A stretch of 64,000 nt of DNA from Nitrospirota bacterium (GTDB lineage: Bacteria; Nitrospirota; UBA9217): positions 33,675-97,674 of the forward strand of contig JBAZLV010000004.1 in assembly GCA_041650055.1 (NCBI GenBank). Reading direction: 5' to 3'. The position numbers and the translations under genes were made by a program. The first letter of the stretch is position 1. Every line of letters starts with the position of its first letter. This document shows positions 5,805 through 61,115 of this stretch, piece after piece. A model generated the notes under the pieces. That model was not told the DNA's origin. It made no database searches and saw only the letters and a program-made list of their open reading frames with translations.

Positions 5805-6575
5805 TTACAATTTCATCAGTGCATCCTGCTTCTGATTCCAGAGAAGCCACTCATCCGTTTCACTACTCGGATCAAATTTTTGCGGTTTTGAAGCAGTGCC
5901 GTCCGGTGTCACCGTGACCTGCTGCATGGCCATGACAATAACCGTCCATTCCTGCATGGCTACCTCATGATACGGCGGCGGAACCGCATGAGGCCCGGGT
6001 ACTTGTTTCGGTCTCGATAGTCCGGCCTGCGGTTGCGTTGCTTCCGGCTTCGGCGTCCCGGAAACAGATACCGAACCTTCATACACTCGGAACAGAGAAC
6101 TTGCATCCGGTTCAATAGTCACTCCGTACACCGTGCCCCGGACTCCGGCGACTGCATTCGAAGTCTCCACCGCGACTGCTGACTTCGGGGTCGTCAGTTT
6201 TTTTACCTGTGCCCAGAGTTTTCCCATGAAAAGGCTGATTTTGAAATGCTTGTCCTTTGTTCCTTTATCATAGGACAACTCCTGGATTCTGAATGAAGAA
6301 GCCTCGGCAAATCGCATGACTGTCCGGTCAGGGAAACGAATTGCAAGCCGTGCGCCTTTTTCCACGGTCACCGAATCGTGCCTGGCTAGTTTGTCGCCGA
6401 TCTTCAGTATCCGGCCTTCAGGATTGGCTGCGGAAACCGTCCGGACGGTGCCGGTAACCATGCTCACAACCGCATTTTTCGGCCCTTGCTCCGCGATGGA
6501 AACCAGTGGATAACCTGAAAGCAATCCAACCATGCAGAGGCTCAACACAATCTGTTTCATCATGTTTTTCTCCAC
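5805..6575 (-). CDS. Secreted FecR-domain-like protein.
   Basis: Signal peptide 'MMKQIVLSLCMVGLLSGYPLVSIA', then a beta-rich region resembling the FecR/anti-sigma periplasmic domain. Last gene of the minus-strand lipoprotein cluster. Confidence 0.35.
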   Translation of the reverse strand: MEKNMMKQIVLSLCMVGLLSGYPLVSIAEQGPKNAVVSMVTGTVRTVSAANPEGRILKIGDKLARHDSVTVEKGARLAIRFPDRTVMRFAEASSFRIQELSYDKGTKDKHFKISLFMGKLWAQVKKLTTPKSAVAVETSNAVAGVRGTVYGVTIEPDASSLFRVYEGSVSVSGTPKPEATQPQAGLSRPKQVPGPHAVPPPYHEVAMQEWTVIVMAMQQVTVTPDGTASKPQKFDPSSETDEWLLWNQKQDALMKL

Positions 6576-13294: not shown

Positions 13295-14032
13295 TTAGAA
13301 TGCCCGTGCCAGGGTGCATGCAATCACCTGAGATGCTCCGGCTTTTTTCAACACGCGGCTGCATTCATTCATGGTAGCTCCGCTCGTAAACACATCATCG
13401 ATCAGGACCACGTTCTTTTCTGCTATGCGTCCAGGATAACGAAGATCAAACGCTCCTGCAACATTTTTGACCCGTTCTTCACCGCTCAGTTCAATCTGTG
13501 CTCGCGTCGGTCGTATCCTGAGAAGATTGTCATAGGAAAACGGGATCTCAAATGCCTTGTGTATTTCATAGACAAGAAGCAGTGATTGATTAAATCCTCT
13601 CTTCTTCAAGCGCATGACATACAGCGGAACAGGAATCAGAACATCGACGTTTGCGAGGAGGCGAATATGTTGTGCCATCCATTTGCCAAGCGGTTTTCCA
13701 AGCGCCCTGCATGGCCTGTATTTATATTGGTGAATTGCTTCACGAAGCGAACCCTCGAAATAACCAACTGCAAATGCCTGATCAAAATGAGGCGGGTGCA
13801 ATCTGCATACTCCGCAAATATGCTCTGGACTGTGACGTAACGTCTCTTCCGATTCAAACAGCCTTCCGCATCGCGCGCATGCCGGCCCTTCGATAAATGA
13901 AAAATCATTCCAACAGGAAGAACACAGGTAGGGAGTAGAAAAATCGTCAACGAGTGAATTACAGTGCGAACAGCGCGTGGGAAAAATGCTATTCAAGATA
14001 GAGTTGGAAAAAAGGATTATTCTGCTCATCAT
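13295..14032 (-). CDS. comF: ComF-family protein (phosphoribosyltransferase-like competence protein).
   Basis: N-terminal double zinc-finger 'CSHCNSL...CSSCW...CARCG...CGVC' plus a C-terminal PRTase motif 'VVLIDDVFTSGATM'. Confidence 0.7.
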   Translation of the reverse strand: MMSRIILFSNSILNSIFPTRCSHCNSLVDDFSTPYLCSSCWNDFSFIEGPACARCGRLFESEETLRHSPEHICGVCRLHPPHFDQAFAVGYFEGSLREAIHQYKYRPCRALGKPLGKWMAQHIRLLANVDVLIPVPLYVMRLKKRGFNQSLLLVYEIHKAFEIPFSYDNLLRIRPTRAQIELSGEERVKNVAGAFDLRYPGRIAEKNVVLIDDVFTSGATMNECSRVLKKAGASQVIACTLARAF

Positions 14033-14117
14033 AACAGGCTATTTCTCAATATGAAATAGACCGGCGAGCCGTATGCAAGCTCACCGGTCTCTGTAGTTGT
14101 TCACGTTTGCTTATTGC

Positions 14118-15185
14118 TTACTTTTTTCTCGGTCCGGCCAAAGGAGCTGCAAGGTCACGTTTTTGCTCTTTATTCAAAAGCTTCAACGTTTGCGGCCACT
14201 TTTCATCCAGGATCACTTCTTCTCCTGCTGGAATAAAATCTATATGAGAGGATAGTAAATGCCCGGAATTGCGATCTCGTTCATGTGCTTTTTGATTAAC
14301 CATCTTCTTTTCCGAATAGCTGACAAGACAAGCTGACTGCACGACCGACTGTCGGTTATGCTTGCGAGCGCCTGCATCAAAGAGTCCGCATTCAAATCGC
14401 TTTACGATAACGTTCGGGGAATCAAGCGGCACCGTAGTCAGTTTTTTTGCCCTGCTCTTAATCCCTTCGAGTGGCAATACCTTCTGAATCTTGCTGACTT
14501 GTTTATACTTCGGCCAGTCAAAATCAAATCCGAATGGTGTTCCCTCGTTATCAAACATGATGGCAATTTTGGAACCTGGACCAACAATGGATACATTATT
14601 TATCGTACGGGTAAACACAACGGTGTTTGCATACACTTTTTCTTCAGGCTTTGAAATTCCTTCTTTCGCTTCTGCAACGCCACCAATGGCATACTCAGTA
14701 AACGAAGGGACCAAATCCTCACCTTTATCTAACTGAATATATCGTGACAAATTCGCTTTGACAAATTGTCTTCCCAAAGTTTCAAGCCTCTCCTGGGAAA
14801 GACGTGATGATACCGGAAGACCGTTCTCCTTCTTGTTTTCCAAATACCCGTAATTACGGTAGCGAACACCACTCCCATCATTGCTTACATCGAGGAACCA
14901 GCCAGCGCCGACAATGGACACATGATTTCTTCTGGTTTTTCTCTCGATTTTTCCTGCTGTAGTAATCGGCGTCTTCGCCTTCTTGAATTGATCCAGGAGC
15001 GCCTTTGATACGGCTTCTTTCCCGGGACCAGGAACCCGTTCCAAAAGAGTCACTTCTTTTTGTCCGATCCCTTCTTTGTTCGATCGTTTTTCCAAATCAA
15101 TCCGCTGTTGAAAATCCGCAGCATTGGCAAATGAACAAAACAGAAGCGTCACCAGAAGCGCCGCTAATTTTTTTAACCTATTCAT
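14118..15185 (-). CDS. Secreted hypothetical protein.
   Basis: Signal peptide 'LAALLVTLLFCSFANA'. No recognisable motif. Strong ORF with GGAGGAAG RBS. Confidence 0.4.
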   Translation of the reverse strand: MNRLKKLAALLVTLLFCSFANAADFQQRIDLEKRSNKEGIGQKEVTLLERVPGPGKEAVSKALLDQFKKAKTPITTAGKIERKTRRNHVSIVGAGWFLDVSNDGSGVRYRNYGYLENKKENGLPVSSRLSQERLETLGRQFVKANLSRYIQLDKGEDLVPSFTEYAIGGVAEAKEGISKPEEKVYANTVVFTRTINNVSIVGPGSKIAIMFDNEGTPFGFDFDWPKYKQVSKIQKVLPLEGIKSRAKKLTTVPLDSPNVIVKRFECGLFDAGARKHNRQSVVQSACLVSYSEKKMVNQKAHERDRNSGHLLSSHIDFIPAGEEVILDEKWPQTLKLLNKEQKRDLAAPLAGPRKK

Positions 15186-15237
15186 ACTTCCTCCTATCCA
15201 AATATCAAGATCAATACCATGAAACGCATATCATGAC

Positions 15238-16041
15238 TTACAGATTATTCCAATACCAATAGCAGTAATAGCTAATACTTCCATCTCTAAGACGAGGATA
15301 GGACGGATAATTCTGCCACTTCATGGTATCCCGTCTGTTCCCACAATCAGCTGCACTTGATCCGGTGGCCATCACGGTAGCATCCTGTGACGTGGCCCAG
15401 TCAGAAACTCCATCTTTCCATGACCACTTGATACTATTCTTTTTCTGAAGATTGTCCGCGAAATCTTCACCAACTTCGTCAGTGGTAATGCCATCATACA
15501 GTTTGTCATGACTTCCTACCGCAATACGCAATCCGCCACGAAAAATCGATCCCATCCGTGTCCACATTTTTCCATCATTGAATTTCAGGGTCTCGCAGGA
15601 ATAAGTCGCCAAAATACTTAATCCATACGAATCATCTCCAAGACGCATTTGTGAAGAATTCGCGAGCATGTTTTGATCCCACATTGCCCAGACCGAAATA
15701 TCGCCCCATGCACCACCATGGGTACTTGCATAAAAGAGGTTCACATTATCAAGCGTTCCCGAGTCTCCTCCCTCTTCCCACCACCACTCGGCGCCATGCA
15801 GATTATAATAAAAAACCTTGGTATCCGTATCATCAAGTTCATTATTAAACCAACCGCATCGATTCCACGTATAATCAAGCGTTGTCTGCCAGCCGTTCTG
15901 ATACTCTTTCTGACAACCGGTTCCGAAACGTGCCTTTGCCCAGGCAGTATTAAAATCGGCAGCAACCATATAAAATGCAGCAATAATGATTAGTGTTAAT
16001 AGCTTTACAAACTTTTTACTTTTCATAGAAATCCTCCTCAA
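15238..16041 (-). CDS. Secreted Trp-rich hypothetical protein (speculative His/Cys dyad).
   Basis: Signal peptide 'LLTLIIIAAFYMVAADFNTAWA'. 'FYASTHGG' and 'ATYSCETL' about 40 aa apart, reminiscent of clan-CD His/Cys peptidase spacing; this is unverified. GGAGGA RBS. Confidence 0.4.
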   Translation of the reverse strand: MRRISMKSKKFVKLLTLIIIAAFYMVAADFNTAWAKARFGTGCQKEYQNGWQTTLDYTWNRCGWFNNELDDTDTKVFYYNLHGAEWWWEEGGDSGTLDNVNLFYASTHGGAWGDISVWAMWDQNMLANSSQMRLGDDSYGLSILATYSCETLKFNDGKMWTRMGSIFRGGLRIAVGSHDKLYDGITTDEVGEDFADNLQKKNSIKWSWKDGVSDWATSQDATVMATGSSAADCGNRRDTMKWQNYPSYPRLRDGSISYYCYWYWNNL

Positions 16042-16591
16042 TAAGATAAAATCACTGCTTAATATTGTTTCGGTAAATTGCCTCCTTTCTGGGAAATAGC
16101 AGATATCTGCATTAACCCTCCCTTCTCTCTTTGCCTATGCTAAAGCTCTATTTCGTATTTGGGGTGGTTTACAATGAGAAGTGAATAGTAGTTGCGTTTA
16201 GCAAGAATTAGCCTAAGCCGATCGATCAAGACGTAAAATACTCTCCAGTCATTCATTAATGTCACAAGTTGATAAATTTGTTTACTGAAGGATTAAAGCA
16301 ATAATTTATAACTATTACCGAAAAGAGCTGCACTGTCAATCACCATACATGGGTATTTTATGGGTATATAGAAAGTTGCATTGATTGTTTTTTCAAATAC
16401 TTGGTTGTTGTAGATATGAAAAAATGCGCACTTATAAATATAGGGGACTATAGGATGTCACGTCTTTTTCAGGATACAAACAGATGTCTGATAAGGATGC
16501 CTGATGGGAACTAACAATGCGTTAGAGTATTTTAGAGTATTCAAGTGTCAGAGGGATAGATGCAGAATATCCATTCTGAGTTCACAGTTCA

Positions 16592-16647
16592 GCGTCACCG
16601 AAATTTCTTTCTTTTGCAATATTTCTGTAACAGTCATACGATATAAA
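16592..16647 (+). promoter_or_regulatory. Tandem Pho boxes plus -10 region (psiE promoter).
   Basis: Four 7-mers at exact 11-bp spacing: GCGTCAC-cgaa-ATTTCTT-tctt-TTGCAAT-attt-CTGTAAC. TATAAA about 10 bp downstream. Near-identical copy upstream of pstS. Confidence 0.5.
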
Positions 16648-16694
16648 GATTCTGACAACAATAATAAGAAACGTTCCTGATAGAAAGGAATTCA

Positions 16695-17129
16695 GTGTAT
16701 TACTTTAATAAAATCGCAGACAGCTTAATCAAGCTCATGATTCCCCTGGTTGTCCTCGCCCTTATGATGGGAATTGCGCGGCTCGTTCTCGACTTGCGCA
16801 CGGTGTTCGGAAGCCAGACCATCGCGATAGCCTTTGATATGATGGTGACGAACATCCTTTCGATGTTTATTGTGATTGAACTGCTGCGGAGTGTCATGGA
16901 ATACTTTGCCGTGCATCGTCTGAAGATAACATTTATCATTGATGCCGCGCTGGTCTTTGTGCTCCGTGAAGTGATGGTAGAGCTCTATCGGCATTCGTTG
17001 CAAACAACCTCGATTTTAGCTCTTTCGGCTTTAATCCTCGTAATGGGCTGCCTCCGAACGCTTGCAGTCGTATTTTCACCTGAAAATTATCTGGAAAAGG
17101 AAGAAAAACAATATGGCGGACAGCGTTGA
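16695..17129 (+). CDS. psiE: Phosphate-starvation-inducible membrane protein, PsiE family.
   Basis: 144 aa, four hydrophobic segments, PsiE-like 'VIELLRSVMEYF...ITFIIDAALVFVLREVM'. Preceded by Pho boxes. Confidence 0.55.
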   Translation: MYYFNKIADSLIKLMIPLVVLALMMGIARLVLDLRTVFGSQTIAIAFDMMVTNILSMFIVIELLRSVMEYFAVHRLKITFIIDAALVFVLREVMVELYRHSLQTTSILALSALILVMGCLRTLAVVFSPENYLEKEEKQYGGQR

Positions 17130-17243
17130 CAAAAATCGGGCATCATTTGTAGCAGAAATTTTTTTACTGCTCGCTTTGATAGCTGGCATCCTCTTCCTGA
17201 TAGTATATTGGAAATAATGAAGAAATAATTTATACAGGAGTTT

Positions 17244-17876
17244 TCAACGCCGAACAATCAGCAACGTGCGCCGCTCGCCATTCTCTACCGCTCGTTGAAC
17301 CTGATCCCCGCACCCTTCACCATACACCTGCTCGATCGTTTCAATGAATCCGGGGCTCATCGTGCGAGAACCTGGCTCTTGCCGGACATTGCAGCTGAAC
17401 AGAAATGCATCATCGATCATTCCTAAAACCTCGTCACCGTCCGAGAAGTGCATGGGCCAGAGCATGCAAACCTTCGGCTTTACCTGTTCCAAAGGCAAAC
17501 CAAGAGTAAGAGCAACGGTGTGCAAGGAGCAATGGGTCCGGTGATCAGACCAATAGGCAAAGACACAGAGCCCATTCTCGTTTGTGTCAATTGAAAAAAG
17601 ACCCGGTTCCTCCTCTTCGAATACATTATCGTATCCTCCGATGGTCAGAAGATGAGGACAGAATTTGACAACCTCGGGCAGAACCTTAATGATTTTCTTT
17701 ATCTCTGCCGTGGTAACGCATACCTCATACGACGCGCAGCAGCATTTCTCTCCCTTGACGCAGCCGTTGCAGTGGTTCTCGAGCTGCAGGAGCGACTCAA
17801 TGTCAACATCTACGCTATTTCGTTGATGTTGGGGCAATTGCTTTTGACGATGCTTTTCAGGTCGGCTTGATTTCAT
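17244..17876 (-). CDS. Cys-cluster protein (YkgJ/UPF0153-like CxxC...CCC putative Fe-S/Zn-binding).
   Basis: 'CNGCVKGEKCCCASYEVC' motif. 210 aa. Divergent from pstS. Confidence 0.4.
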   Translation of the reverse strand: MKSSRPEKHRQKQLPQHQRNSVDVDIESLLQLENHCNGCVKGEKCCCASYEVCVTTAEIKKIIKVLPEVVKFCPHLLTIGGYDNVFEEEEPGLFSIDTNENGLCVFAYWSDHRTHCSLHTVALTLGLPLEQVKPKVCMLWPMHFSDGDEVLGMIDDAFLFSCNVRQEPGSRTMSPGFIETIEQVYGEGCGDQVQRAVENGERRTLLIVRR

Positions 17877-18077
17877 AGGACAGTAAGAAAGAGATCAAGA
17901 TAGAGTGAACATCAGCCATTCGTCGAGAAACGGTGTTTTTTTCAACTTCAGTTTCTCAATCGAGCGAGTTCAAGAGTATCATAAGTAAATTGGAAATTAA
18001 AGGGGGAAGTCATAAAGATGCCTGATGCAGGATGCCGGATACCGGATGGTAAAAAAAATCTGAGTTCATAGATTCAC

Positions 18078-52012: not shown

Positions 52013-52795
52013 TTATGCTCCGCGTTCGCCCGCTGATACAGGAATTTCCTTGTAAACAGCTCTCAAAAATTCCATGGATTTAAGCCGTTTATTCATGAGC
52101 TGGATAAGATACGAAGAGAATGCCTGTCCAAGTTCCTGCATGATTTCCGGTGAAGGCTTCAGACGCGATATTTTTTCCATGTCCATGCGCAGTGCCTGAT
52201 AATAAAATCCCGAACTTCCCCGAGATATTCTGAACTGTGCATCGCCGGATGAGACCATGCAGTCCGAGCAGACGACTCCGCCTTTCATGCTTAAAAAAAT
52301 CGCTGTGCCCTTCGGAATAGTGTTACAGGAAAGACAGTAATCCAGTTTCGGTTGATATCCCAGCAGGGACAATAATTTAATTTCAAATATCCTGAGTAAA
52401 AAAAGAGGGTCTTCCCCGTTCTCAAGAAGCGCAATGGCCTGAGAAAGCAGAGCATACGTATCACTATTGGGTTCATGAAGAGGAGCGAGCTCTTTGACCA
52501 GCTCCAGCATAACCGAGCCTGCCGCAGAATAATATAGATCAGTGCACAACATACGTGGTTGGAACAGAATATCCGCTGATTCAATCCGTATAAGATCCTG
52601 GAATTCCCGTTCGTGAAGATACAGCCTGCAGGTCGTGAACGCTTCAAAGGCCGCACCAAAACGCCGGAATGACTTGCGGGCGTTTTTTGCCACTCCTTTT
52701 TGCAAACCACGATCAATCGAGAAGAAGGTGACTAGCTTGTCTGCTTCTCCCAGATTCATACTGCTCAGAATGATGGATTCGGTTTTTGATTTCAT
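52013..52795 (-). CDS. recO: DNA repair protein RecO.
   Basis: OB-fold N-terminus and zinc motif 'CLSCNT...CSDC'. Confidence 0.8.
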   Translation of the reverse strand: MKSKTESIILSSMNLGEADKLVTFFSIDRGLQKGVAKNARKSFRRFGAAFEAFTTCRLYLHEREFQDLIRIESADILFQPRMLCTDLYYSAAGSVMLELVKELAPLHEPNSDTYALLSQAIALLENGEDPLFLLRIFEIKLLSLLGYQPKLDYCLSCNTIPKGTAIFLSMKGGVVCSDCMVSSGDAQFRISRGSSGFYYQALRMDMEKISRLKPSPEIMQELGQAFSSYLIQLMNKRLKSMEFLRAVYKEIPVSAGERGA

Positions 52796-52977
52796 AAGAT
52801 TGTATTTTTTAGCCACGGATCAACACGGATTTTAGTCTGGATAACCGTAAAGAACCACGGCATTATACACTGTCACGAGGACGGAGAAAACAAGGAATTT
52901 TTTGGGAACAAAACCTCCTTTCAGTATGTCTCATGGGTTGGATGCAAAAAATTAAACCGGAGAGAAAGGAGAAGAAA

Positions 52978-54531: not shown

Positions 54532-55077
54532 TTATATTCGAGCATCCTTCATTGCTTCTCGAGACCGTCTTCTGATATAAAGTGCCTCTTCTTCCGGTAT
54601 TCCAAGTGATAGAAGAAATTGCTGATGCATTTCCGGAGCCCGGCGCTCGAACTCCGCATGCCACTTGTTCATGGCAGCTTCATCCATTCCCGCAGCACGA
54701 AGCATTTCAATCCAAGTCCGCTTGTCTACTGCAACCGGAAGTTTTCCAAGCGTCTGGATGCGCAACATCTTACCGAGCAAATGCTGTTGGAACTGTAAAT
54801 GACGGATCTCTTCACCGAGCTCTCGCATGCGCCGCTGCAAGACTGGTTTATTCGAATTGTTCCTGGCGGATAAAATACGACGAATATCTTCAATAGTCAG
54901 TCCTGCCTGCCGGAAGCTGCAGATCGATGCCAGTCTGTCTTGATCTTTTTTCGAATATTGACGATAGCCAGTTTTACTTCGTTCCGAGGGTTTCAACAAG
55001 CTAATGCGGTCATAATACAATAATGTACTGCGCGAAAGGCCGAATTTCCTTGCCAACTCAGTAATCCGAAACATCAC
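54532..55077 (-). CDS. MerR-family transcriptional regulator with a C-terminal ~60-aa helical effector domain.
   Basis: 'ITELARKFGLSRSTLLYYDRISLLKPSERSKTGYRQY' HTH. C-terminal 'MNKWHAEFERRAPEMHQQFLLSLGIPEEE'. Confidence 0.7.
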   Translation of the reverse strand: MMFRITELARKFGLSRSTLLYYDRISLLKPSERSKTGYRQYSKKDQDRLASICSFRQAGLTIEDIRRILSARNNSNKPVLQRRMRELGEEIRHLQFQQHLLGKMLRIQTLGKLPVAVDKRTWIEMLRAAGMDEAAMNKWHAEFERRAPEMHQQFLLSLGIPEEEALYIRRRSREAMKDARI

Positions 55078-55134
55078 ATCCTCGATTCATTTCAAAAATG
55101 AACGCCCCGGGCATTATGCCTGAGGCGCTTCTGT

Positions 55135-55326
55135 TCACTTTGATTTCAGACGAATTTCCGCGATCTTCTCAGCAGGTAGCCCAAGCCATCCCAAAAAGCT
55201 CTGATGGCCTTCCGGATTCTCCTTCTCGAACAGGCTATGCCACTTCTGCATGGCAGAGTCATCCAAGCCCATCGCGCGGAACCGTTTTACCCATTCGTCT
55301 ACCGTAACCTTGGTTTTCATGATCAT
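55135..55326 (-). CDS. Small protein paralogous to the C-terminal domain of the adjacent MerR regulator.
   Basis: 'LDDSAMQKWHSLFEKENPEGHQSFLGWLGLPAEKIAEI' aligns to 'MDEAAMNKWHAEFERRAPEMHQQFLLSLGIPEEEALYI'. Confidence 0.45.
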   Translation of the reverse strand: MIMKTKVTVDEWVKRFRAMGLDDSAMQKWHSLFEKENPEGHQSFLGWLGLPAEKIAEIRLKSK

Positions 55327-55751
55327 TTCTCCTTTCTCATTTTTTTCATGGCCGTGACAAGAGAAAGAATAAACTATAAAGCGGTAGACGGGTCAAGTGA
55401 AAAAGTTACCTAAAAGGGACAATCAAATGATCCTATAAGAGCCATTATCTCATCTTAATATATTGATACTTCCTTTAATATGGTAATTAAGATATCTTCC
55501 TATCGATTGAGCACTCATTAATTTTATATTCTGCTTTTAGGAATATTTAAATATTGCTATAGGGAACCGTTGCTGAACATGACTTGCAACGTCTTTGATT
55601 TGTAACCGACCAATTTGATACTCGAGGAAGTTACCGGCACCATTTTCATAAATTAATTTTAGCAAGTTTATAGCAGTCATCATTGCTTATTGGACGCTTT
55701 CAACAATTCTCATTAGTTTTTAATGTTCCCGAAAATCTTTAAGGACGTTGG

Positions 55752-55943
55752 TTATTCCACCTCTGTGTCAGTCAAATGCGCCTCTAAGGCATGAATAGAA
55801 ACAACGTCCCAATGTTTTGTTGTGGCAAATTTCGAAAGATCATCTCTGGAAGTGTACTGAATCAGTAGCGTTGTATGAGTACTACCTAACAGCGACCTTT
55901 TCCCATTGCTGATGTCTTCTGTGTTTAGTACTAATACATCCAT
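55752..55943 (-). pseudogene. Short ORF, possibly a gene remnant, within the AT-rich island.
   Basis: 63-aa ORF with no RBS. The surrounding ~700 bp have no longer ORF. Confidence 0.2.
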
Positions 55944-56055
55944 GGCGACATTGTCAATTGTAAAGACCTGACCTACCGAATGTTAGGAAGTAATTAATCA
56001 CTCATACCCCATAAGCATCAACAGCCGATGACGTTTGAGTTAGGAGGGATTTTTG

Positions 56056-58443
56056 TCATATCCTCATGAACCAATTTTTTTGACGCCATTTATTTTTCAA
56101 AATAAACTCTTGGGGATTAAGAATCAAATAAACTTTGTTTTTGAATATCCAGTTCCGTTCGTTAAGTTTTTTATTTAGCGATTGGAGATTATCTATCACT
56201 ACATTTGCACCGCCGTCTGTCACTCCAATTAGATATTGGTTGTTGAATAGTGATTCTAAAAGACGCTCAACTTCGGCGCTTTTCATGCCAGCAGAAATAG
56301 CTATATTTTTAAATTTTGAATACTCACAAAGTGTTTCGTAATAGTAACTTTTTTGCAGTTCGTGAAGTATGTTTTCTATTTTGGGGAATTCTGCTTTAAC
56401 TTCTGCAATCATATTATTGTGCAGAAATATCGTATACGCCTCGATAGCATAAATAAAATCATCATCGAGCACTTTAGCATGATCATTGTTGACGGCTGAT
56501 TCAAATAATTTACTTAAAATGTAAATAATATCACGTGGCCGCGCTACTGCTAATTTTTTAATCAGATCAAATGGATGTTTATCTTTCGAAAAATCAAAGT
56601 ATTCTTTCCATACTTCTTCTATTTCATGGGATGTAGTTAAATTTAAAATGTATTTAAACCTCTCCTCCACAAGTTTTTTTAAGAGATTTCCATGATGTTC
56701 CCATTTGATTTCATATGATCTTATTGTCAATTTGTCTGGTTCCCTTGTGCGTTGAAGAATATAATCATATATATCTTTTCTTAACATTATGATCGTGTTA
56801 GTTTTGATTTGTTTATCTTGTTCTTTCGATAACAACTCTCTTGCAATTTTATCACTGTATTCTAATAAGCCAAGGATCATATCAGACTGAACAGTCAAGT
56901 TATTGCGGGAATCCCAGCTTTTGTCCAGATTATCGGCAAGGATATTAAGCGTATAATATTTCTCCTTCTTAAAATATAGACGTAACACCTGAATAAGCTC
57001 GGTCAAATAACTTTTATATAATTCATCTAGCATTGCGGGATTTTCGACGATACTTTTTCCGTTCAAAGCCTCATGAATTTTTTTGATTGCACCAAAAAAG
57101 TTTAATGACAAAAGATCTCGGTGGTTACCTCTAAATTCGAGTATTTTCTCTTCTTCTGGTAAAAGAGTAGTATGCTCTTTTTGAATAATTTTGTTTTCTA
57201 TGGCCAGAAGCAGTTTGGAAAGAATGACAAACTTCCAAACTGAATAAAATAAAGAGCGCTTTGAAATTTCATTTCTATATACTGATGATAATTCAACATT
57301 TTCCAGCAGCTCATCAGAGTCTGGTTTTAATATAACATTATAGTTGATTGCCTCCTTCTCAAGATCTTTCTCAAGCTTAATAAATAATGCTGACTTACCT
57401 GATCCTTTTCTTCCTACAAATACAGAAAGCGACCTCGACGCTGCTTTTTTGTACGCCTCAATCTCTACGAAATAATGAAGAAGTGATTCTTTTTCTTCTT
57501 CAGCAATTTCGCAGCCGATACCAAGTTTAAGAAGATTATATTTTTTATCAACTACTATAGCATCTGCTTCTGGCACTCTAACTACCTGATGCTTTGAAGA
57601 CACAGATCCAAGTTGAGTTCGGATCCAGTCTTCTGTTTTTATAACGCATTCCTCTGAACTCGTATATTCCACTAAAATATCGTCATAATCGATTGGTGCA
57701 TTAAAAGGAGCTGGGGCGACCAGCAATACATTTTTGTCTAGACCACAACCAATGCCGGCGTAGAAAGAATATTCTGCGTTGTGTCTTAGATTATCGGTGG
57801 TACTCTTTCCATGTAGGTGAATAACTATATTTTTAACTTTATATAATGAATGTATATACCAACTGAGAGTTTGATATTCGACTTCACTTGTATCATCATG
57901 AATTAAGCGATACTGTGAGGATGTCAGGAATTCTGTCAAGTCAAGAGAGGCTTGCGTGTCGATTTTACTAGAAATATAAAAAATATCATGAGTATCTATT
58001 TCAGCTTCGTCGAGTTTTATTAAAGAAGACAGAAGAACCGTTTGAACTCTATCCTTGGTTTGCAGTTCCGTTTGAATATGTTTATAGTTCGTGTATTGCT
58101 GATAGCCTATATTTTTTAAGAAGCGACATGCAGAATATCTTTCTTTAGCGCCTTCTATCGATGTATTTATAAAAACTAATAATTTCTTTTTCTTTCCTAT
58201 TGCATACCCAAGCTCAAAAAGCACATTATGATTGAGATATGTCAAGTCACATGCAAATAATTCACTGCTATCAATATTCTCGAGCACTGTACGATTTATT
58301 ATTTTCCCCCCTACTCGCAGGTCTTCCCATGACATCGCAGTGAATCCTCTTTGGTGCGTATTGTATTCAATAATCGCTTTTTTAATAGCATCTATTGTGT
58401 CATGATGCCCGCTTTCATACGCAAAGAATATTTTTTTCATCAT
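56056..58443 (-). CDS. Multidomain P-loop NTPase with two N-terminal nucleoside-2-deoxyribosyltransferase/TIR-like (SLOG-type) domains. Candidate defence protein.
   Basis: Domain 1 'KKIFFAYESGHH...NVLFELGYAIGKKKKLLVF', domain 2 'IFYISSKID...AEYSFYAGIGCGLDKNVLLVA', Walker A 'VFVGRKGSGKSALF', putative Walker B 'YTLNILADNLD', 'LAVARPRDIIYIL' sensor-like helix, long helical C-terminus. Start at MMKKIFF after GGAG. Confidence 0.6.
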   Translation of the reverse strand: MMKKIFFAYESGHHDTIDAIKKAIIEYNTHQRGFTAMSWEDLRVGGKIINRTVLENIDSSELFACDLTYLNHNVLFELGYAIGKKKKLLVFINTSIEGAKERYSACRFLKNIGYQQYTNYKHIQTELQTKDRVQTVLLSSLIKLDEAEIDTHDIFYISSKIDTQASLDLTEFLTSSQYRLIHDDTSEVEYQTLSWYIHSLYKVKNIVIHLHGKSTTDNLRHNAEYSFYAGIGCGLDKNVLLVAPAPFNAPIDYDDILVEYTSSEECVIKTEDWIRTQLGSVSSKHQVVRVPEADAIVVDKKYNLLKLGIGCEIAEEEKESLLHYFVEIEAYKKAASRSLSVFVGRKGSGKSALFIKLEKDLEKEAINYNVILKPDSDELLENVELSSVYRNEISKRSLFYSVWKFVILSKLLLAIENKIIQKEHTTLLPEEEKILEFRGNHRDLLSLNFFGAIKKIHEALNGKSIVENPAMLDELYKSYLTELIQVLRLYFKKEKYYTLNILADNLDKSWDSRNNLTVQSDMILGLLEYSDKIARELLSKEQDKQIKTNTIIMLRKDIYDYILQRTREPDKLTIRSYEIKWEHHGNLLKKLVEERFKYILNLTTSHEIEEVWKEYFDFSKDKHPFDLIKKLAVARPRDIIYILSKLFESAVNNDHAKVLDDDFIYAIEAYTIFLHNNMIAEVKAEFPKIENILHELQKSYYYETLCEYSKFKNIAISAGMKSAEVERLLESLFNNQYLIGVTDGGANVVIDNLQSLNKKLNERNWIFKNKVYLILNPQEFILKNKWRQKNWFMRI

Positions 58444-58796
58444 AACATGTTCTCCATTATTAAAACTAAAATCCAGGCGATGGCAAGGGGACATCCTATA
58501 GTCCCTCTGTCTCAACAACACACTCTCCAACAAAAACATATTACTCTCAGGGCTAACTGGCTCAGCTGCTTTAATTAAATTGTTTTATCGGATCTGGATA
58601 TATAGATAGATATTTGAAAATTATCGTAGGCAAAAGGAAGACTATCGTTTGTTGCGTTTTTATTATACGAATATGAGATGTGATGTCAAGGAGTTAAACA
58701 GGATACAGGATTCTAGAAACCGGATGCCAGATTCCGGATACCGGATGATGGATACAAAGCAAAACGTCTGATCATGAAACGTGATTCAAGAACACA

Positions 58797-60060: not shown

Positions 60061-60957
60061 TTATTCTGTTATTATTCCAATATTCTTCAGCATCCGCTCG
60101 TCTTCGCGCCATCCCTTTTTCACCTTCACGAGCAGCTGAAGAAAAATTTTTGTGCCAAGCATTTTTTCAGCATCCTGTCGTGCAAGCGTACCGATTTGCT
60201 TCAGCATTCCGCCGCCTTTTCCGATAAGAATGCCTTTTTGGGAGTCCCGCTCCACATAAATAGTGGCCGTAATCCGGACGATCTTCGGCTCTTCCTTCAT
60301 TTCTTCGATAACCACTGCCGTGGAATACGGGATCTCTTCTTTCGTTAACCCGAATATTTTTTCCCGGATTATTTCTGATACGATAAATCGTTCCGGCTGA
60401 TCTGTCAGCTGGTCTTCCGGAAAATAATGCGGACCTTCAGGCATCTGCTGAAGAATCCTTTCCACAAGTCCTCCCAGATCGCCTTGCAATGCGGAAACAG
60501 GAATAATTTCGGCAAATGGATACAGGGTTGCATATTCCTGGATAAGAGGCAAGAGCATTTCTTTTTTGACAAGGTCTGTTTTATTAATAAGAAGAAATAC
60601 GGGTTTTTGTATCCGGGCAAGTGTTTCTATGATGAATTTATCTCCTGCTCCGGGCCGACTGGTAGCTTCAACGAGCATAAGAATAAGGTCAACATCCGGG
60701 TATGTTGCAAGCGCGGTCTTGACCATGAACTCGTTCATTTTATGGATTGGTTTATGGATGCCCGGAGTGTCGAGAAAAACCATTTGGGCATTCTGCCGGT
60801 TTACGATACCAAGAATCCGGTTTCGGGTCGTCTGGGGTTTATCCGAAATAATTGCGATTTTCTCTCCTAAAAGCGAATTTAAAAGGGTCGATTTTCCAAC
60901 ATTCGGTCTGCCGATGATGGAAATGAAGCCGGATTTGAACAATTTCTTGTTTGTCAT
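60061..60957 (-). CDS. era: GTPase Era.
   Basis: G1 'IIGRPNVGKSTLLN', G3 'DTPG', G4 'NKTD', and a C-terminal KH domain. Confidence 0.9.
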   Translation of the reverse strand: MTNKKLFKSGFISIIGRPNVGKSTLLNSLLGEKIAIISDKPQTTRNRILGIVNRQNAQMVFLDTPGIHKPIHKMNEFMVKTALATYPDVDLILMLVEATSRPGAGDKFIIETLARIQKPVFLLINKTDLVKKEMLLPLIQEYATLYPFAEIIPVSALQGDLGGLVERILQQMPEGPHYFPEDQLTDQPERFIVSEIIREKIFGLTKEEIPYSTAVVIEEMKEEPKIVRITATIYVERDSQKGILIGKGGGMLKQIGTLARQDAEKMLGTKIFLQLLVKVKKGWREDERMLKNIGIITE

Positions 60958-61115
60958 GCCGGTAGAATACCTGAATTCACTGCAGGGTGCAATAGATTTT
61001 GAATACGCATTCCAATAGGTACTCACTAATTCAGGAAAATCTCTTTAAAGTTTATAAAGAGCATGCCGATAAGAAAACCATACATCTTACTATAGGTAAC
61101 GGGAGGGAATGAGGG

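Follow-up and report, generated by a model that had tools for sequence, protein, structure and literature searches.

A lone AT-rich gene from a Nitrospirota bacterium joins a predicted NDT-type N-glycosidase domain to an AAA+ ATPase: a candidate single-protein conflict system

Introduction

The DrHyd domains and the TIR-DrHyd-SLOG clade were reportedly defined by Burroughs et al. in 2015. DrHyd and TIR domains lying N-terminal to STAND-type NTPases have been predicted to be the effector or signal-generating heads of conflict systems (PMC7159879, PMC8195603), and inactive versions of TIR, DrHyd and SLOG domains have been proposed as nucleotide sensors (PMC9503650). TIR domains and the effector of retron Ec86, which resembles the nucleoside 2-deoxyribosyltransferases (NDTs), were reported to cleave NAD+ (reviewed in PMC13276650), and depletion of adenine derivatives was described in a preprint on Ec86 (10.1101/2023.08.16.553469). 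The Ec86 effector has a catalytic Glu, acts against phages, needs dimerisation and is inactive until triggered (10.1101/2023.08.16.553469; PMC13276650). In this study, we analysed a 64,000-nt stretch (hereafter, the window) of contig JBAZLV010000004.1 from a Nitrospirota bacterium, in which an AT-rich island holds a lone gene for a protein composed of two such domains, D1 and D2, and a P-loop ATPase. From its genomic context and composition, we consider with a probability of about 0.6 that this gene is a self-contained single-protein conflict system directed against phages or other mobile elements. It would belong to the type in which an effector is fused to an NTP-driven switch, and its family is not claimed by known defence models.

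The logic of the protein is shared with the effector-NTPase single-protein systems; however, its parts are different. Avs, SIR2-STAND, TIR-NLR and bNACHT proteins carry TIR, SIR2 or nuclease effectors, whereas an NDT/DrHyd-type domain followed by a domain lacking the catalytic Glu is found here. Avs proteins also have a large C-terminal repeat (TPR-like) sensor that binds a phage protein, while no TPR-, LRR- or WD40-type sensor is present in this protein, and its ATPase is structurally nearer to the initiator-clade AAA+ proteins (TnsC, Cdc6, DnaA) than to Avs. Retron Ec86 (Eco1) likewise uses an NDT-like domain with a catalytic Glu as anti-phage effector, a role that is predicted for the present protein. 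In the retron, the effector is controlled by a cage of reverse transcriptase and multicopy single-stranded DNA, whereas the fused ATPase would take this part here. Specifically, no reverse transcriptase was found among the recurring neighbours of the family, no Rfam family (non-coding RNA) was found in the window, and the island contains no neighbour gene. Thoeris has an adjacent ThsA-like effector gene, whereas no neighbour is conserved here (the largest neighbour cluster occurs in 8 of 85 loci).

The closest relatives of D1 in both sequence and structure are DNPH1/Rcl, MilB and the NDTs, which have the same catalytic Glu helix. DNPH1 acts on deoxynucleoside monophosphates (dNMP), and MilB acts on CMP. 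These are, however, metabolic enzymes of ~150 aa that form homodimers or hexamers and have no ATPase fusion, and their similarity to D1 is marginal (E 0.0015–0.05). The systems described by Kaur et al. in 2020 and 2021 are mostly multi-component (vWA-MoxR, iSTAND, FGS and effector-associated domains) and enriched in multicellular bacteria (PMC7159879, PMC8195603). Compared with such DrHyd/TIR-STAND proteins, the present one stands alone, has no adaptor domains, carries a Sll1717-type ATPase and has a tandem active/inactive pair of domains. A further parallel is seen in Swarozyc, a DUF4062 TIR-like NADase system, and in the NACHT-linked TEP1 (10.64898/2026.05.01.722283). We found no description of the exact architecture, D1-D2-Sll1717 ATPase, in the literature.

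Results

A single AT-rich gene codes for a 795-aa protein

The interval from a MerR gene pair to a YHS-domain gene contains one long minus-strand open reading frame (ORF), 56056–58539, and no second ORF of note, as was stated in an earlier note on this DNA made from the sequence alone. The length of 827 aa given there corresponds to the longest ORF, which extends to 58539. The protein itself is shorter: a GGAG ribosome-binding site is located 8 nt 5' of the ATG at 58443, all 43 aligned homologues begin at the Met of this ATG, and NCBI holds an identical 795-aa protein from a Nitrospirota metagenome-assembled genome (MAG). Judged from these features, the true start is almost certainly ATG 58443 and the protein has 795 aa.

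56056–58443, minus strand: coding sequence (CDS) of the 795-aa protein; stop codon 56056–56058, start codon ATG at 58443

The GC content of the gene was 0.339, compared with a mean of 0.468 for windows of the same size elsewhere (standard deviation (SD) 0.019, minimum 0.413), and was thus ~6.7 SD lower. In 500-nt windows, GC fell from ~0.46 to 0.31–0.38 across ~55250–58750. When the 64-kb window was divided into 2-kb bins, the bin at 56–58 kb was the lowest (0.340; all others 0.396–0.507), so that the sharp AT-richness of the island noted before is well founded.

D1 resembles NDT-superfamily N-glycosidases and D2 lacks the catalytic Glu

An AlphaFold model was built on 43 diverse homologues and is confident, with a mean predicted local distance difference test score of 83.8. 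The N-terminal part of the protein was divided as follows.

58039–58443, minus strand: D1, NDT/DrHyd-superfamily N-glycosidase-like domain, aa 1–135, with motif NHNVLFELGYAIG and the catalytic-type Glu77
57604–57996, minus strand: D2, TIR/NDT-like Rossmannoid domain without catalytic Glu, aa 150–280, keeping E187, H209, N222 and D252
aa 280–292: linker, disordered in the AlphaFold model
aa 292–336: helical arm, a short helical segment in the AlphaFold model

In the model, D1 has a three-layer Rossmannoid fold that superposes on NDT structures. The query alone scored 13.6 bits against the Pfam NDT model (PF05014-type; cut-off 28.8; Nuc_deoxyrib_tr E 0.077) and 14.2 bits against CAP12-PCTIR_TIR, which is below the cut-off of 24.7 (E 0.045). 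Nuc_deoxyrib_tr was matched by 27 of the 43 homologues at E ≤ 0.01, with a best E of 6.6e-7. When a D1 profile was searched against all PDB sequences, essentially only NDT-superfamily N-glycosidases were retrieved (best E 0.0015), namely DNPH1/Rcl, hmdUMP hydrolase, the CMP N-glycosidase MilB and NDTs, and the FELG of D1 was aligned onto the catalytic YELG of DNPH1 and IEIG of MilB. Conservation was examined in an alignment of 245 full-length family members with 24–80% identity to the query. E77 and N73 of D1 are present in 245 of 245 sequences and W39 in 244. By its fold, profile neighbours and catalytic Glu, D1 is a member of the NDT/DrHyd superfamily and a predicted N-glycosidase.

D2 was compared with known structures on its own. 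The structure-search scores were 11.8 for RPS4, 11.6 for RRS1, 10.7 for MAL, 10.7 for TIR-STING and 10.0 for SARM1; note that generic flavodoxin-like folds scored only slightly lower (CheY 9.9; a designed Rossmann fold 11.2). The PADLOC TIR effector model gave E 0.005 for the query and was weakly matched by 29 of 43 homologues (best 5.8e-6), and no TIR model of Pfam or PADLOC was significantly matched by the query. A D2 profile found no relatives among PDB sequences. As judged from the modelled fold, D2 is a TIR/NDT-like domain of the TIR-DrHyd-SLOG clade. Since NDTs scored higher with the full model and the TIR domain of RPS4 scored higher with D2 alone, D1 appears to be the more NDT-like and D2 the more TIR-like of the two. 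Two tandem NDT/TIR-like alpha/beta domains had been proposed in the earlier note, and their folds agree with this.

The same note had placed an ELGYA motif, together with effector or NADase chemistry, in each of the two domains. This is possible for D1, in which the catalytic Glu (E77) is present in the helix after the third strand, whereas D2 has (F/Y)xAGhxxGhG opposite the ELGYA of D1. The position matching E77 is Y, V, F or I in 245 of 245 D2 sequences and Glu in none, and on this sequence evidence D2 cannot use the Glu-dependent glycosidase chemistry. D2 has on the other hand its own polar set, E187 (240/245), H209 (226/245), N222 (232/245) and D252 (243/245), and is therefore kept for a role other than Glu-dependent catalysis. 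Its probable role is in regulation, in the binding of nucleotides or as the partner in a pseudo-dimer. We also considered D2 as a duplicate of D1. A profile-profile comparison aligned 17 columns with a probability of 4.6%, which does not support this origin, and ancient duplication is neither shown nor excluded.

The polar set of D2, which is pocket-like and conserved without the catalytic Glu, bears on another explanation, namely that the protein is a signalling device. In this case, D1 would make a nucleotide second messenger (a product resembling cyclic ADP-ribose, or a base-exchange product) that is sensed by D2 or by an unlinked protein, and the gene product would form just a part of a dispersed pathway. 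In favour of this, transglycosylation is a natural activity of NDT enzymes. Moreover, the TIR/DrHyd/SLOG clade includes signal generators (ThsB, ADP-ribosyl cyclases) besides the inactive versions proposed as sensors (PMC9503650). However, known signalling systems have generator and effector in one operon, and no conserved neighbour that could be the receiver accompanies this gene. As transfer between phyla involves this gene alone, reliance on an unlinked partner is disfavoured as well, and we regard a signalling protein as quite unlikely.

The ATPase belongs to the Sll1717 family and resembles initiator-clade AAA+ proteins

The remainder of the protein is formed by one ATPase module with the following parts.

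56764–57429, minus strand: P-loop ATPase core of the Sll1717 family, aa 339–560, with Walker A, Walker B and the invariant R555
57391–57414, minus strand: Walker A, GRKGSGKS, aa 344–351
56971–57270, minus strand: helical insert of ~100 aa (aa 392–491) between strand 2 and the Walker-B strand, from the AlphaFold secondary structure
56923–56946, minus strand: Walker B, LADNLD, aa 500–507
56059–56691, minus strand: AAA+ lid and winged-helix-like C-terminal domain, aa 585–795, with the invariant RPRD motif at aa 635–638

The query matched the NCBIfam model NF047389 ('P-loop ATPase, Sll1717 family') with 199.9 bits and E 7.9e-59 (cut-off 75 bits), over model positions 2–417 of 454 and aa 342–773 in the numbering of the 827-aa ORF. 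Several homologues already carry the Sll1717 family name at NCBI. This name gives no function, and a literature search for 'Sll1717' found no publications. The model covers the C-terminal ~430 aa, i.e., the ATPase only, while the present protein adds the two N-terminal TIR/NDT-like domains. Thus, the NTPase is not assigned to a housekeeping family.

Both Walker motifs described earlier are present and invariant. K350, D504, R555, P636 and R637 occur in 245 of 245 family members and D507 in 244. As E77, K350, D504, R555 and R637 are each found in all 245 sequences, the catalytic centres of the glycosidase and of the ATPase are both under strict selection. Searches of PDB sequences with the full protein and the full profile found nothing for the ATPase. 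In structure searches, the best neighbours were AAA+ proteins of the initiator clade and related ones, namely TnsC (12.4), the archaeal ATPases SSO1545 and PAB2304 (12.2), Cdc6/ORC (11.5), DnaA (11.2) and MuB (10.1), and matches were also found to TIR-NLR (11.5), SIR2-STAND Avs5 (10.0), ZAR1 (9.9) and BrxC (9.9). According to the model, the module is an intact AAA+ ATPase that looks functional and has a winged-helix end, and in structure it appears to be of the ORC/Cdc6/TnsC type. The helical insert sits where initiator-clade AAA+ proteins have a DNA-contacting insert, and by analogy a function on DNA may be located there.

The lid is helical (aa 585–700) and the end of the protein (~708–780) is winged-helix-like in the AlphaFold model. 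Only these two parts follow the ATPase core, and no separate repeat-type sensor domain was seen in the model. What had been taken for a helical sensor region of roughly 400 aa is therefore the insert, lid and winged helix covered by one ATPase model. Avs and bNACHT models of PADLOC were matched neither by the query nor by the 43 homologues (E ≤ 0.01), and no other PADLOC ATPase model claimed the protein; weak matches to Pfam nSTAND3 and nSTAND5 were seen in 5 and 4 of the 43 homologues, respectively. Since there is neither a repeat sensor nor a match to a PADLOC ATPase model, the earlier description 'Avs/STAND-like' is valid as an analogy of logic and not as membership. Note that PDC-M28C of PADLOC was weakly matched by 27 of 43 homologues (best E 8.6e-7) and BrxF by 10 of 43.

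Free-standing Sll1717-type ATPases of ~480–515 aa were also observed, on ~25 viral or proviral contigs and on Nostoc and Polaromonas plasmids. Such ATPase-only copies are located at 5998–7449 of L092, at 5896–7473 of L093 and in L104–L131 (IMG/VR), where L numbers denote the loci collected. The Nostoc copy has AbiTii, DUF87/NurA, DUF3696, HNH and DUF262 genes as neighbours. The idea that effectors are swapped on the Sll1717 ATPase was not upheld, as no conserved partner was detected for the ATPase-only relatives and the genes adjacent to them had no Pfam match.

The family is widespread, patchy and AT-rich against its flanks

An exhaustive profile search of 1.84 billion representative sequences found 693 clusters (50% identity) at E ≤ 1e-30 and 2220 at E ≤ 1e-10. 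Nearly all of the best 150 clusters were ~790 aa in length and were matched from residue ~5 to at least residue 700, and the ORF length is near constant across the family. In GTDB, with one genome per species, at least 369 species have a relative, covering ~15 phyla and one archaeon. The carriers include Desulfobacterota, Planctomycetota, Spirochaetota, Cyanobacteria/Melainabacteria, Elusimicrobiota, Chloroflexota, Acidobacteriota, Bacteroidota, Bacillota, Actinomycetota, Gemmatimonadota, Poribacteria and Armatimonadota. The archaeal copy, a full-length relative with 27% identity and an 815-aa ORF, is on a 3.3-kb contig of a Candidatus Methylarchaceae archaeon (L089) and could have arisen by transfer between domains of life or through contamination during binning.

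In all 69 loci with enough flanking sequence, the family gene was below its flanks in GC content, by 10.5 points on average and by more than 10 points in 34 loci, with host GC contents from 30 to 70%. Relatives were found on 18 plasmids, and 10 IMG/VR contigs have full-length relatives. At least 5 of the 85 loci hold a disrupted copy: L023 and L073 have frameshifts, L050 and L078 have internal stops, and L081 has a ~1.9-kb insertion; these could be pseudogenes or errors of MAG assembly. In evolution, the three parts of the protein form a single unit, whose gene is transferred horizontally on its own.

This distribution bears on the explanation that the gene codes for a housekeeping or stress enzyme of nucleotide metabolism, for example, an N-hydrolase of (deoxy)nucleotides under ATP control that disposes of damaged or modified ones, and that it takes no part in conflict. 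Such a function would suit the closest sequence relatives of D1, which are metabolic (DNPH1, hmdUMP hydrolase, MilB and NDTs), as well as the several loci in which housekeeping genes only are present and the two loci with ribonucleotide reductase nearby. On the other hand, the spread over ~15 phyla is patchy, with 25–45% identity and no synteny, and the AT-richness in 69 of 69 loci, carriage by plasmids, decayed copies and neighbouring restriction-modification (R-M) and abortive infection (Abi) genes in many loci are at odds with a housekeeping role. An effector joined to an AAA+ switch of ~450 aa is also unlike known salvage enzymes. We hold such an enzyme to be very unlikely.

Defence and mobile-element genes recur near the family gene

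No neighbour is conserved among the 85 loci. The commonest neighbour cluster is ABC/UvrA-like, at variable distance, and may be a single-linkage artefact of ABC ATPases. Among the near neighbours, the large subunit of ribonucleotide reductase was found in two loci and a UvrD-type helicase three times. Hence, there is no conserved non-defence context; rather, R-M, Abi and mobile-element genes recur adjacent to the gene. In a Leptospira locus, the family gene adjoins a complete Type I R-M system, SocA/Panacea and Mrr. Another locus has a ThaI R-M system and an AAA_15/DUF4276 pair as neighbours, and a Caldithrix locus has transposases, integrase fragments, ParE/Phd and DUF3800. A Type I S subunit adjoins a 76%-identical relative. 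An Eco57I-type IIG R-M gene is located directly downstream (+1) in three loci, SNF2 and PLD helicases are found in five, and XRE regulators, resolvases and Mu-type transposases are further recurring neighbours.

When 150 nearest neighbours were compared with 150 far controls from the same loci, 367 and 115 PADLOC families were matched, respectively. The Pfam families in near genes included N6_Mtase, UvrD, Eco57I, HTH_3, DDE and rve transposases, Resolvase and AAA_15, whereas far genes had Mur ligases, glycosyltransferases and similar families. The enrichment of defence and mobile-element genes near the family gene is real but modest.

Another explanation is that the gene is a component or cargo of a mobile element and serves this element and not the host: as a target-selection or replication ATPase resembling TnsC, MuB or IstB, or as an addiction or exclusion factor of a plasmid or island, with a glycosidase domain that would damage cells or competitors in which the element is lost or lacking. 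However, an rve transposase is missing from the neighbourhood in 81 of the 85 loci, for which reason a transposon ATPase was rejected as the main explanation, and none of the transposase, integrase and replication genes is a conserved neighbour. The present window has no tRNA, integrase or flanking repeats, and it is hard to see what a transposition ATPase would do with an N-glycosidase site that is strictly conserved. Conserved cargo beyond the gene was also considered and rejected; in blastn and tblastx comparisons with the two closest relatives (74% nucleotide identity), similarity was limited to the CDS. Relatives show no similarity beyond the CDS, and hence no ends of an element are carried along with the gene. 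The mobile-element explanation is in our view unlikely.

Flanks of the island

The island is bordered by non-coding DNA on both sides, between the MerR pair and the YHS gene, as described before. The features outside the CDS are listed below.

55327–56055: AT-rich non-coding spacer 3' of the gene, holding a 63-aa ORF at 55752–55943
58444–58796: non-coding DNA at the 5' side of the gene
58662–58689, minus strand: sigma-70 consensus promoter-like site, TTGACA-16 nt-TATAAT, 12 of 12 matches

The promoter-like site is a consensus match located ~220 nt 5' of the start codon on the gene strand; note that, overall, such sites are no more frequent in the region than expected from shuffled sequence. 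The site suggests, as far as sequence goes, that the gene is its own transcription unit. The ~730-bp downstream spacer had no Rfam match even at E ≤ 1 and no similarity to plasmids, and it is unconserved even in the 74%-identical relatives L009 and L010. Its 63-aa ORF, regarded as a remnant in the earlier note, does exist; it has no family match in Pfam and no detectable relatives. The spacer is probably junk or remnant DNA that came in with the gene, and we treated it as non-functional.

As island borders, no tRNA, integrase, Rfam family or convincing flanking repeats were found in the window, and the repeats around the island are short, of low identity and of the kind usual in AT-rich DNA. 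One flank has recO, DUF7918, DUF1579, a MerR regulator and a 63-aa paralogue of the C-terminal half of MerR, and the opposite flank has a YHS-domain protein, a DedA/VTT protein and era. At 54532–55326 (minus strand), the MerR regulator (181 aa) is preceded by the 63-aa paralogue ORF, which is ~45% identical to the MerR C-terminal half and may be an anti-regulator or an effector-binding decoy. This two-gene unit was found with 68–85% identity in at least 12 metagenome contigs. As none of these has the island gene, the MerR pair is independent of it. We also searched for an empty site by way of the MerR neighbour; the pair was kept in the metagenome contigs, the other genes of the window were not syntenic, and no empty site was shown. 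The genes recO and era are often adjacent in bacteria. In the window, recO (52013–52816) and era (60061–61026) lie on the same strand ~7 kb apart, with DUF7918, DUF1579, the MerR pair, the island, the YHS gene and the DedA/VTT gene between them, and this stretch could be a hotspot of variation. Another, less deep GC trough is present at 14001–18000 (0.42–0.44 versus ~0.47), with a strongly negative GC skew at 14–16 kb.

Discussion

Taken as a single-protein conflict system, the gene product could work as follows. In the resting state, the ATPase module would hold D1 inactive. Infection would provide a trigger for ATP-dependent oligomerisation, most plausibly foreign DNA or an intermediate of replication or packaging, to which the insert and the winged-helix end would bind in the manner of TnsC, Cdc6 or DnaA. 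Nucleic acid is the most economical guess for the trigger because of the kinship to DNA-loaded AAA+ proteins, the position of the insert and the presence of the winged helix. Oligomerisation would then bring D1 domains, or D1-D2 pairs imitating the dimer that NDTs require, into an active arrangement. Dimerisation is obligatory in enzymes of the NDT family, whose active sites are shared, and for this reason D1 and D2 may form an intramolecular pseudo-dimer, or the D1 domains of different protomers may pair upon assembly. D2 would be a non-catalytic partner that completes the active site of D1 or senses a nucleotide ligand. D1 would cleave the N-glycosidic bond of an abundant nucleotide, either NAD+ or adenine/deoxy-nucleotides, so that phage replication would be starved or the infected cell aborted.

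Several points weigh against this interpretation. What D1 cleaves, what triggers the protein and what D2 contributes are all matters of inference. The known defence models do not claim the protein; PADLOC matches are sub-significant and do not include Avs or NACHT. The family was absent among 50,697 GenBank phage records. The enrichment of neighbours is a crude measure, in that redundant R-M models inflate the counts, the ORFs were of our own calling and a minority of neighbours is defence-like. Many loci, including this window, L007 and L008, have housekeeping surroundings and no other defence gene nearby. In addition, the low GC content could partly stem from a conserved composition rich in K, N, I, F and Y and not from recent transfer.

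A different sketch of the same gene can be drawn, as an immune system of a single gene that is very widespread, has gone unrecognised and departs from the Avs-type sensors in its sensor as well as in its effector half. In it, the initiator-type AAA+ assembles on invading or replicating DNA and does not recognise a phage protein, and an intramolecular NDT/DrHyd active/inactive pseudo-dimer, in line with its nearest relatives DNPH1 and MilB, attacks (d)NMPs, possibly the hydroxymethylated pyrimidine nucleotides used by many phages, and not NAD+. We think this rather unlikely. The central idea of the earlier note, an uncharacterised candidate defence gene in which one or two NDT/TIR effector-like domains are joined to a P-loop NTPase, has outlasted the checks named with it, and a conflict system of a single protein is the interpretation we prefer.

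Conclusions

The family is real, well defined and uncharacterised, and it has strong signatures of a conflict gene; it does not introduce a new principle. It is distinctive in having an NDT-type and not a TIR-type effector, an active/inactive tandem, an initiator-like AAA+ without repeat sensor and family-wide AT-richness. Specialists would be surprised only if DNA sensing or the reading in terms of modified nucleotides proved true. The system is tractable as a single 2.4-kb gene, with E77, K350 and D504 as residues for point mutants and a separable D1-D2 fragment.

If its defence function is confirmed, a common single-gene system would join the catalogue, carried by hundreds of species from most bacterial phyla, among them soil, sediment, gut and marine lineages, and by plasmids. 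It would represent a natural NDT/DrHyd glycosidase under a fused AAA+ switch, linking the NDT effectors of retrons, TIR/SIR2-STAND proteins and the logic of eukaryotic TIR-NLRs. The tandem of an active and an inactive domain is a simple model of how pseudo-enzyme domains regulate nucleotide-depleting effectors. Confirmation would also provide a function for a family that is named at NCBI and is now without one.

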